Positions 7,485 through 9,431 of a stretch of DNA of 11,099 nt are shown here, piece after piece. The notes below the pieces were generated by a model. That model was not told the origin of the DNA, ran no database searches, and worked only from the letters and a program-made list of their open reading frames with translations. Every line of letters starts with the position of its first letter. Position 1 is the first letter of the stretch. Source of the DNA: a virus (Duplodnaviria; Heunggongvirae; Uroviricota; Caudoviricetes); IMG/VR virus record IMGVR_UViG_2541047953_000001, positions 1-11,099 of that record. One strand, written 5' to 3'. The position numbers were made by a program, and so were the translations under genes.

Positions 7485-9431
7485 GCGACTGATGCTGCAG
7501 ACTCAGCACGCGCAGCCAGCACGTCAGCCGGACAGGCCGCGACGTCGGCTCAGGAGGCTTTTTCCAGCGCAGGAACGGCATCAGCAAAAGCCTCTGAGGC
7601 ATCAAAAAGTGCTGCCGCTGCAGAGTCCTCAAAAAGCGCGGCGGCTACCAGTGCCGATGCGGCGAAAACGTCAGAAACGAATGCGGCAGCGTCACAACAA
7701 TCAGCAGCCACTTCTGCATCCACCGCGACCACGAAAGCGTCAGAAGCTGCCTCCTCAGCCCGGGATGCGTCGGCCTCAAAAGAGGCGGCAAAATCATCAG
7801 AAACGAACGCATCATCAAGCGCCAGTAGTGCCGCTTCCTCGGCAACGGCGGCAGGAAATTCCGCGAAGGCGGCAAAGACGTCTGAGACAAACGCTAAGTC
7901 CTCTGAAACGGCAGCGGAACAGAGTGCCTCAGCTGCGGCAGGCTCAAAAACAGCGGCTGCATCATCTGCCAGTGCCGCGTCAACAAGTGCCGGGCAGGCC
8001 TCAGCCAGTGCCACCGCCGCCGGAAAATCGGCAGAAAGTGCTGCATCGTCCGCTTCAACAGCCACAACGAAGGCTGGCGAAGCCGCTGTACAGGCCAGCA
8101 CAGCAGCGAGGTCTGCTTCCGCAGCGAAGACATCCGAGACGAACGCGAAAGCGTCGGAAACCAGCGCAGAATCCTCAAAAACGGCTGCCGCATCGTCCGC
8201 CAGTTCGGCGGCGTCATCGGCATCATCTGCGTCTGCTTCAAAAGATGAGGCGACCAGACAAGCGTCCGCAGCGAAGGGCAGCGCCACGACAGCATCCACG
8301 AAGGCGACAGAGGCAGCTGGCAGTGCGACGGCGGCAGCACAGAGCAAAAGTACGGCGGAATCCGCGGCAACGCGCGCCGAGACAGCGGCAAAACGGGCAG
8401 AGGATATTGCATCCGCCGTGGCGCTTGAGGATGCGAGCACGACGAAAAAGGGGATAGTACAGCTCAGCAGTGCGACCAACAGCACTTCCGAGTCACAGGC
8501 GGCAACGCCAAAAGCCGTTAAGGCCGCGTATGACCTGGCTAACGGGAAATACACCGCACAGGATGCAACGACAGCACAGAAAGGGATAATCCAGCTAAGC
8601 AGCGCGACCAACAGCACATCTGAAACGCTTGCCGCGACACCAAAGGCAGTAAAAACAGCCTATGACAATGCTGAGAAACGTCTGCAGAAAGATCAGAACG
8701 GTGCGGATATCCCTGGCAAAGACACCTTTACGAAAAATATTGGTGCCTGCCGTGCCTTCGGTGGGTCAGTAAGCACAACAACAGGAAACTGGACGACTGC
8801 ACAGTTTATCGAGTGGCTGGATTCTCAGGGAGCATTTAACCATCCCTACTGGATGTGCAAGGGTTCCTGGTCTTATGGCAATAATAAAATCATTACTGAT
8901 ACTGACTGCGGTAATATTCATCTCGCCGGAGCTGTCATTGAAGTAATGGGGATAAAGTCAGCGATGACGATCCGCATTACCACACCGACCACCTCCACTG
9001 GTGGTGGAACAACTAACGCCCAGTTTACCTATATTAATCACGGAACAGATTATTCACCTGGCTGGCGAAGGGACTATAACTCCAGAAATAAGCCAACGGC
9101 ATCAGAGATCGGGGCGTTACCGTCAGGTGGAACAGCAGTATCATCAGTTAATCTGGCTTCAAAAGGTCGGGTACAACAGGAGCCGAATGGCTGGAAGACC
9201 GTCACCACACAGTTCTACATCCAGGAATTCAGTGAGTATATTGCGCCACTGCAGGATGCTGTAGATCTGGAAATCGCAACGGAGGAAGAAAGATCGTTGC
9301 TGGAGGCATGGAATAAATATCGGGTATTGTTGAATCGAGTTGATACATCAGTAGCTCTGGGTATGAAGCTGTTTGTAACTCATGTTACAGTAACAGTCAT
9401 TACTATCTCGAAGGTGCAAAATGTATATTGA
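7485..9431 (+). pseudogene. Side tail fibre (Stf-like) remnant lacking its 5' end and start codon: Ala/Ser/Thr-rich shaft, two tail-fibre repeat units, a distal domain, ending in a Tfa-like C-terminal motif
   Basis: A third frame, open from about 7365, encodes [25 protein letters not shown]...KTSETNA...[35 protein letters not shown]..., which parallels the lambda Stf shaft. By my manual translation no ATG, GTG or TTG occurs in this frame before the GTG at 8418, where the track ORF starts. The 3' end carries [37 protein letters not shown], the conserved C-terminal signature of tail fibre assembly (Tfa) proteins. Beyond about 9352 the sequence becomes AT-rich and the frame ends at 9429-9431. 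Confidence 0.6.
8448..8666 (+). repeat. Tandem duplication of a ~29-codon tail-fibre repeat unit (KGI[VI][22 protein letters not shown]), period 132 bp
   Basis: Copy 1 at 8448-8534 and copy 2 at 8580-8666 are nearly identical at protein level and highly similar at DNA level. This is a coding repeat within the fibre ORF. Confidence 0.6.

Follow-up and report, generated by a model that had tools for sequence, protein, structure and literature searches.

The Stf shaft of a decayed lambdoid prophage and the extra open reading frames that lie across it

The stretch of interest is the whole of an 11,099-nucleotide (nt) viral sequence, IMG/VR record IMGVR_UViG_2541047953_000001, positions 1 to 11,099 (hereafter, the window). 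The window is what is left of a lambdoid prophage in decay at the DLP12/ompT site, with the gene order porin, essD, rrrD, rzpD, bor/iss, ylcI, nohD', J', 'stf', 'tfa. The focus of this work is the 'stf' segment, a piece of a side tail fibre (Stf) gene, and in particular positions 7494–8420, a shaft-coding region rich in alanine, serine and threonine across which several open reading frames (ORFs) extend. Two of these ORFs, an arginine-rich one on the plus strand and one of 355 amino acids (aa) on the minus strand, had been singled out in an original prediction made from the sequence, and both are present in the ORF list exactly as claimed (Table 1).

Read in the sense frame (frame 0), positions 7494–8417 consist of 44 uninterrupted heptads of the form A-x-x-S-A-x-x, in which position a is Ala in all 44, position d is Ser in 35, and position e is Ala in 31. 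Counting a partial first heptad and a last heptad, VALEDAS, the array spans positions 7479–8438; in the intact protein, it comprises 50 uninterrupted heptads (residues 113–462). The heptad phase is unbroken for 308 residues, with zero stutter, and the Fourier power of the Ala positions at a period of 3.5 is 40, as compared with a maximum of 11 in 300 shuffles. An AlphaFold2 single-chain model gives one continuous helix (residues 2–333; mean predicted local distance difference test score, pLDDT, of 76.9). In terms of composition, the 309 codons of 7494–8420 include 117 Ala, 78 Ser and 35 Thr codons (74% in total), and just four code for hydrophobic residues. The earlier description of the region as low-complexity falls short, as the 44 perfectly phased heptads make it more ordered than that description implies. 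The guanine-plus-cytosine (GC) content of the shaft is 0.58–0.63, exceeding that of most of the remaining window (0.29–0.58). The tetranucleotide CTAG is absent from 7494–8420.

In a megablast comparison with phage genomes, 121 records match the shaft at 86–95% identity, and their annotations read side tail fibre or tail fibre protein; several phage stf genes match at 93–95%, and lambda stf at 86% nucleotide identity. Directly 3' of the shaft lie two Phage_fiber_2 repeats. A search of PDB sequences with the shaft yielded a sole, marginal match: residues 173–266 of a T7 gp17 chain (PDB 7boz, E = 0.27). The two resemble each other weakly, as small-residue-rich stretches of tail fibre proteins; however, the T7 segment is much shorter, and homology is not demonstrable.

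The closest structural comparison is provided by Ur-lambda, whose Stf is a trimer consisting of a collar domain (residues 1–91), a linker, a proximal coiled coil (residues 102–393), a hinge, and a distal coiled coil (PMC12617516). Electron cryo-microscopy (cryo-EM) and tomography of Ur-lambda reveal a rigid proximal rod, which has been modelled with AlphaFold3 as a trimeric coiled coil (PMC12617516). The window resembles the Ur-lambda gene at 86% nucleotide identity over 7480–7960 and 79% over 8268–8523. It differs in that the window allele derives from a 50-heptad shaft (that of lambda has 35), and in that the window gene is cut at both ends and not translatable from its own start. By analogy with the published Ur-lambda structure, the shaft would be trimeric and act as a rod; in an intact phage, it would span the distance between the tail-borne N-terminal collar domain and the receptor-binding part at the distal end.

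The state of the window gene can be read from a comparison with reference L007, an intact prophage of Escherichia coli O43 RM10042. Three pieces of the window have a match in L007: (i) positions 6968–7480 correspond to nt 301–813 of J (96.7% identity), (ii) positions 7477–9173 correspond to L007 positions 6001–7697, in an intact stf gene (99.9% identity), and (iii) positions 9172–11099 correspond to a 'tfa remnant plus an alpha/beta hydrolase gene adjoining ompT (99.9% identity). Three-way alignment with L007 was used to place the junctions A, B and C (Table 1); the partner sequences at the three junctions are unrelated to each other. The stop-codon map shows that frame 0 is stop-free from 7365 to 9431, and that there is no ATG, GTG or TTG in this frame over the 351 codons of 7365–8417; the first such codon is at 8418. 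The collar domain, PF08400, is found in intact relatives of the window stf, and is absent upstream of the shaft in the window; instead, there is J sequence, with stf homology beginning at nt 425. The stop-to-stop frame 7365–9431 is a J'/stf/tfa patchwork. The J' frame itself terminates at a TGA at 7490–7492, out of frame with stf. Junction C is in-frame by chance, and in the fused stf–tfa frame after it, what remains of the tail fibre assembly gene (its C-terminal portion) gives a match to Caudo_TAP.

The window stf is a pseudogene fragment, without collar domain and start codon. That is, the window holds a fragment of a Stf family member rather than a functional member, and it seems that nothing of the remnant is translated. 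One deletion fused J nt 813, out of frame, with nt 425 of stf, and thereby took away the collar domain and the start codon; a second deletion removed the distal part of stf. Among 5426 complete E. coli genomes, none spans junction B or the 6300–9700 arrangement, and the junctions of the window were not found; neither was a junction-B 35-mer found in a species-representative genome set. Similar remnants exist in K-12 (stfQ/nohA in Qin, and nohD–tfaD in DLP12), in which a packaging gene has likewise been deletion-fused to a piece of stf. The DLP12 remnant shares its chromosomal site (on the ompT side) and flanking genes with the window. In Qin, nohA is joined to distal stf and the shaft is wholly lost, whereas the window retains the shaft.

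We next turn to the frames other than the sense frame. Stop codons within 7494–8420 number zero in the sense frame, zero in frame +1, six in frame +2, 25 in the in-register antisense frame (-0), two in antisense frame -1, and one in antisense frame -2, the frame in which third codon positions are shared with the sense strand. All 25 stops of the in-register antisense frame come from TCA serine codons. On the stop-codon map, the stop-free spans extend over 7462–8457 in frame +1, and over 7553–8659 in one antisense frame. Mononucleotide shuffles of the region contain ~8.5 stops per plus-strand frame and ~7.4 per antisense frame; in 2000 such shuffles, frames +0 and +1 were never left open. Therefore, the openness is far beyond what base composition alone would give.

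The original prediction put the long open frames down to a GC-rich, biased codon composition. This is not borne out. When codons were shuffled among identical residues—keeping the protein fixed—frame +1 was stop-free in 100% of 2000 trials, and the -2 antisense frame contained at most one stop in 90%; with uniform synonymous codons, frame +1 was stop-free in 70%. Since synonymous shuffles keep the frames open, it is the protein sequence that causes the openness, and neither GC content nor codon bias in itself. A stop in frame +1 would require a T at sense codon position 2; in the 309 codons, this position is C in 68% and T in 1.3% (four codons). A stop in the wobble-sharing antisense frame would require a Tyr, His or Gln codon to follow a codon ending in T or C. 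Both stop-forming situations are almost absent, and therefore the frames remain open under any synonymous codon choice.

Overall, we are confident (with a probability of roughly 0.93) that frame 0 of positions 7494–8420 codes for 44 of the 50 heptads that make up the proximal coiled coil in a Stf of the lambda type, and that the extra ORFs are artefacts of the amino-acid make-up of that coiled coil. The evidence presented here consists of homology, heptad phasing, helical prediction, shuffle tests, and selection tests. Shadow ORFs, which lie on the opposite strand of genes with a biased composition or in another frame of such genes, are a known gene-finding artefact. The ORFs of the window are like them in that the codon-position composition of a real gene creates long ORFs, and in that a wobble-sharing antisense frame imitates purifying selection. 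They differ in degree: the window is an extreme case, with T nearly absent at position 2, such that frame +1 cannot close. The region is otherwise ordinary and already known, namely the Stf proximal coiled coil as a dead fragment.

Selection was tested on a sample of 66 distinct alleles of equal shaft length. Sense-synonymous changes were seen at ~29% of opportunities, and non-synonymous changes at 5–7%; in a six-sequence subset, 72 of the 106 variable sites are at sense codon position 3. In a four-class opportunity test, the effect of a change in frame +1, +2, -0 or -1 made no difference to substitution rates. The ratio of non-synonymous to synonymous polymorphism (pN/pS) is ~2 in each of these four frames, and 1.97 in the frame of the 172-aa antisense ORF. 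Only the sense frame is under constraint among these homologues. Furthermore, the alternative products have zero Pfam matches, no Shine-Dalgarno sequence lies ahead of 7483, 8617 or 8412, no promoter-like site was found in 6800–9200, and there is no Rfam match over the whole window. The earlier opinion that the alternative frames are not expressed is supported to the extent that they bear no sign of being genes.

Three other explanations were weighed. That stf harbours a true overlapping gene, in the form of either the arginine-rich +1 ORF or the antisense ORF of 355 aa, is extremely improbable. The ORFs are long, frame +1 is stop-free in 60 of 91 intact alleles, and such ORFs have been deposited as proteins; however, shuffles that preserve the sense protein alone reproduce the openness, the alternative frames are free of extra constraint, and neither ATG 7483 nor GTG 8617 is preceded by a ribosome-binding site or a promoter-like site. 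An exhaustive HMMER search of 1.84 billion representatives returned 52 proteins and no independent family; the hits are short and of E. coli type, and those whose sequences were read are frameshifted, fused or mis-called copies of stf. A number of observations do weigh against the coiled-coil-with-artefacts reading, some of them in favour of a hidden gene. The pN/pS value is 0.215 in the wobble-sharing -2 antisense frame, versus 0.170 in the sense frame. This low value arises because antisense wobble positions coincide with sense wobble positions, which imitates purifying selection; pN/pS by itself, being low by construction, was rejected as a test of the antisense ORF and replaced by the opportunity test with a transition/transversion (ts/tv) control. 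The signal is then gone: the counts for sense-synonymous transversions are 57/305 where they are also antisense-synonymous and 28/159 where they are not (P = 0.80), the latter, discriminating class being small. Compared with the synonymous shuffles, there are also too few stops in frame +2 (6 versus 11.1 expected, P = 0.03) and frame -1 (2 versus 7.6 expected, P = 0.006), because codons ending in T seldom precede codons beginning with A (5 cases where 13.1 are expected; the ratio is 0.38, and ten neighbouring control genes or gene segments give 0.93); the shuffles overstate the significance of this T-then-A shortage, as the repeats are related by duplication. In addition, heptad analysis ends the lambda array at residue 357 and not at the published residue 393, the AlphaFold2 run used one chain without an alignment and is silent on trimer formation, and the case against alternative-frame translation is purely one of evolution and context.

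It is also highly improbable that the region is a disordered, low-complexity Ala/Ser/Thr linker with repeats that are products of slippage. The extreme composition would suit such a linker, as would the small residues (Ala and Ser) at the core positions, which are unusual in a coiled coil. Against this stand the perfect phase over 308 residues and its retention in all natural length variants, the predicted continuous helix (pLDDT 77), the rigid proximal rod seen in Ur-lambda by cryo-EM and tomography (PMC12617516), and the weak similarity to a T7 fibre segment. A tandem-repeat (slippage) locus was considered and rejected: Tandem Repeats Finder shows no slippage-type array, giving only a 9-nt unit in 2.1 copies. 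Lastly, the remnant could be partly expressed, for instance from GTG 8418 as a 337-aa protein (fibre repeats, fibre domain and Tfa tail) with a host function like that of StfE2, a cryptic-prophage Stf chimera for which an anti-phage role has been reported (PMC12529663). The corresponding ORF, 8418–9431, exists, and gene callers call its equivalent in many remnants. We nevertheless think partial expression very improbable: there is no promoter-like site upstream, GTG 8418 is merely the first start-type codon after 351 codons and lacks a ribosome-binding site, and the product would be without the trimerising shaft and the receptor-binding end. In any case, the DNA concerned lies outside 7494–8420.

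Table 1. Positions of the shaft, the open frames, the junctions and related features in the window.
Feature	Position	Strand	Details
'stf' remnant	7477..9173	+	nt 425–2121 of a 3072-nt lambda-type stf; frame 0 (codon starts divisible by 3)
Heptad array, Stf proximal coiled-coil shaft	7494..8417	+	From heptad table, Fourier analysis, per-position composition and AlphaFold2
Two Phage_fiber_2 repeats	8428..8666	+	PF03406, E = 1.4e-38; 107-nt direct repeats at 8428–8534 and 8560–8666 (family D1)
Arginine-rich +1-frame ORF, 324 aa, ATG	7483..8457	+	By-product of sense frame; ATG formed from His-Ala codons CAT GCG
Antisense ORF, 355 aa, GTG, Ala/Val/Asp/Phe-rich	7550..8617	-	By-product of sense frame; third positions coincide with sense third positions
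Second antisense ORF, 172 aa	7894..8412	-	By-product; same frame as VUF53544.1
Antisense ORF, 81 aa	7645..7890	-	From ORF list
Junction A	6968..6970		nohD codon ~170 joined to J nt 301; 3 nt microhomology
Junction B	7477..7480		J nt 813 joined to stf nt 425; microhomology CAAC (4 nt)
Junction C	9172..9173		stf nt 2121 joined to downstream 'tfa remnant; 2 nt microhomology
29-nt unit A-A-K-(T/S)-S-E-T-N-A (family D3)	8118..8146; others at 7656, 7782, 7866	+	Spacings 126, 84, 252 nt
A5 run TCAAAAAG	7604..7608; twin 7631..7635	+	Recurrent -1 frameshift site; 10 clusters switch at 7603–7606, 6 at 7633
Right end points of deletions	8078–8080		3 fusions
Right end points of deletions	8090–8092		2 fusions
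Right end points of deletions	about 8100		1 fusion
Right end points of deletions	8116–8119		3 fusions
Right end points of deletions	8130–8131		2 fusions

The shaft had further been described as built from recurring units that, as substrates for recombination, could explain the nearby deletion junctions. The units are real: KTSETN occurs in three copies and KSSETN in one, and there are four families of direct repeats with units of 24–37 nt. The repeats are dispersed, 62–83% identical, and 84–294 nt apart. In families D2–D4, which have the longest units, the spacings are 147, 168, 231, 126, 84, 252 and 294 nt, each a multiple of 21. Shaft-length variants exist among other alleles: (i) the lambda shaft (L003) is shorter than the window-type allele by exactly 315 nt (15 heptads), (ii) six IMG/VR loci lack exactly 7788–8123 (336 nt, 16 heptads), a segment between two AAK(T/S)SETNA units, and (iii) one locus is shorter by 14 heptads (length-variant loci other than lambda: L114, L125, L129, L176, L185, L192 and L147). 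The natural shaft lengths are thus 50, 36, 35 (lambda) and 34 heptads, and the phase is kept in all variants; these whole-heptad lengths are useful for tail-fibre engineering. The repeat units mediate in-frame unequal recombination, giving rise to alleles that differ in length by whole heptads.

The idea of recombination between repeats applies to in-frame, whole-heptad deletions in other alleles, but not to the junctions near the shaft: a repeat-mediated origin of junctions A, B and C was rejected on the three-way alignments, in which unrelated sequences are joined through 2–4 nt of microhomology. Of 75 loci with near-identical N-termini, 74 share one shaft length, although the proteins as a whole are anywhere from 503 to 1176 residues long. 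A constant shaft in proteins of varying length fits a conserved rod with exchangeable distal parts.

The warning that the region is a trap for automated annotation proved justified, both by antisense coding sequences (CDSs) in phage ev099 and by 77 spurious protein clusters. In ev099 (LR597635.1), an intact stf is unannotated across the shaft, where three minus-strand "hypothetical proteins" have been placed instead; one of these, VUF53544.1 (227 aa), shares its frame with the second antisense ORF of the window. The ev099 tail fibre CDS begins at the equivalent of GTG 8418. The annotation of mEp332 is split, and its second piece begins at the same equivalent position. In ev099, mEp332 and many remnants, gene callers let these cut-down "tail fibre" genes begin at GTG 8418 because there is no start-type codon in the 351 codons before it. 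In a collection of 5.8 billion sequences, the hit table contains nine protein clusters for the antisense ORF, and 68 for the arginine-rich ORF, with all of the latter mapping to stf read out of frame.

The arginine-frame clusters are of three kinds. The first consists of free-standing ORFs from the same ATG as 7483. The second consists of Stf N-termini that slip into frame +1, with 16 clusters doing so at two A5 runs (Table 1); these switches may reflect either sequencing errors in homopolymers or true slippage mutations. The third kind consists of chimeras: a deletion has fused the 5' portion of some other prophage gene to the shaft, which is then read in frame +1. Partners of this third kind include NohA/NohD, terminase large subunit, portal, capsid E, tape measure, gpL, Dam, ParB and an O-like gene. 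Frequently, a chimera still bears the name of its N-terminal gene (e.g., "terminase small subunit" or "minor tail protein L"), and the contexts of the chimeras and other clusters are real defective prophages. The arginine-rich tails of the frameshifted and chimeric database proteins are 100–290 residues long. Separately, in L109 (IMG/VR 2703718837_000003), a fragment of the terminase large subunit is fused to stf in the sense frame at the window equivalent of 7546, giving a 1440-codon stop-to-stop frame. The general rule to be drawn is that where T is almost absent from codon position 2, long false ORFs arise in Ala/Ser/Thr-rich coiled coils. In this respect the present work is mainly housekeeping, and the understanding of Stf is unchanged.

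The right end points of the chimeras are unevenly distributed along the shaft. Thirteen of 17 fall within 8078–8182; four lie upstream, and two downstream, of 8078–8131. Within 8078–8131 itself, a segment of 54 nt (~6% of the shaft), end 11 DNA-verified and apparently independent fusions (loci L089, L092, L208, L209, L211, L212 and L215–L219). Their partners are portal (two types), terminase large subunit (at two positions), capsid E, tape measure, Dam, an O-like replication gene, and the NohA of Qin; the remaining two are deletions internal to stf. The clustered fusions are on different stf alleles, and those that could be placed on a chromosome are at different sites. The cluster comes from one frame (+1) and from a database search scoring 8000 candidates. 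Since frame +1 is open in 60 of 91 alleles, detection bias—upstream stops hiding fusions—is not an obvious cause. Inside the cluster, exact positions recur about as often as chance would have it (~7 close pairs expected, eight seen), and only the regional clustering stands out.

Some break points of the window also recur in other loci. At junction A, it is the nohD side that recurs, joined to 7594 in L220 (L220 position 7508) and to 7825 in P0012. At junction B, it is the stf side, with which the left end of a deletion inside the stf of L215 (3427–3428) coincides. On the basis of these patterns, 8078–8131 could conceivably be a preferred end point of illegitimate deletions that inactivate lambdoid prophages, with break points perhaps being re-used generally, a proposal that we put forward tentatively and consider unlikely. 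If true, it would point to a sequence-directed break or a repeatedly cut site, and not to random decay. Cutting directed by a type I-E CRISPR (clustered regularly interspaced short palindromic repeats) spacer against 8073–8104 (protospacer adjacent motif AAG at 8070–8072) was considered and dropped: in the one register tested, no such spacer was found in complete E. coli genomes, the best repeat-spacer-repeat match being 89%. The segment contains two small palindromes: CTGTACAG at 8086–8093, and CTGC-TTCC-GCAG at 8113–8124.

Shaft DNA is also found in other phages. It occurs at 88–90% identity in Cyrano (108 kb), a phage whose annotation includes a P1 S-type tail fibre, and the megablast organism list also has records of Peduovirus and of Yersinia phages. 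This agrees with the exchange of tail fibre modules by horizontal transfer, which has long been known.

Elsewhere in the window, an intact 365-aa porin gene (1355–2452, minus strand) lies at the position of nmpC, which in K-12 carries an IS5 insertion. The essD-rrrD-rzpD lysis cassette is complete and, together with bor/iss, occupies 3026–4521, and the alpha/beta hydrolase gene (494 aa; 9615–11099, minus strand) at the far end of the window adjoins ompT in relatives.

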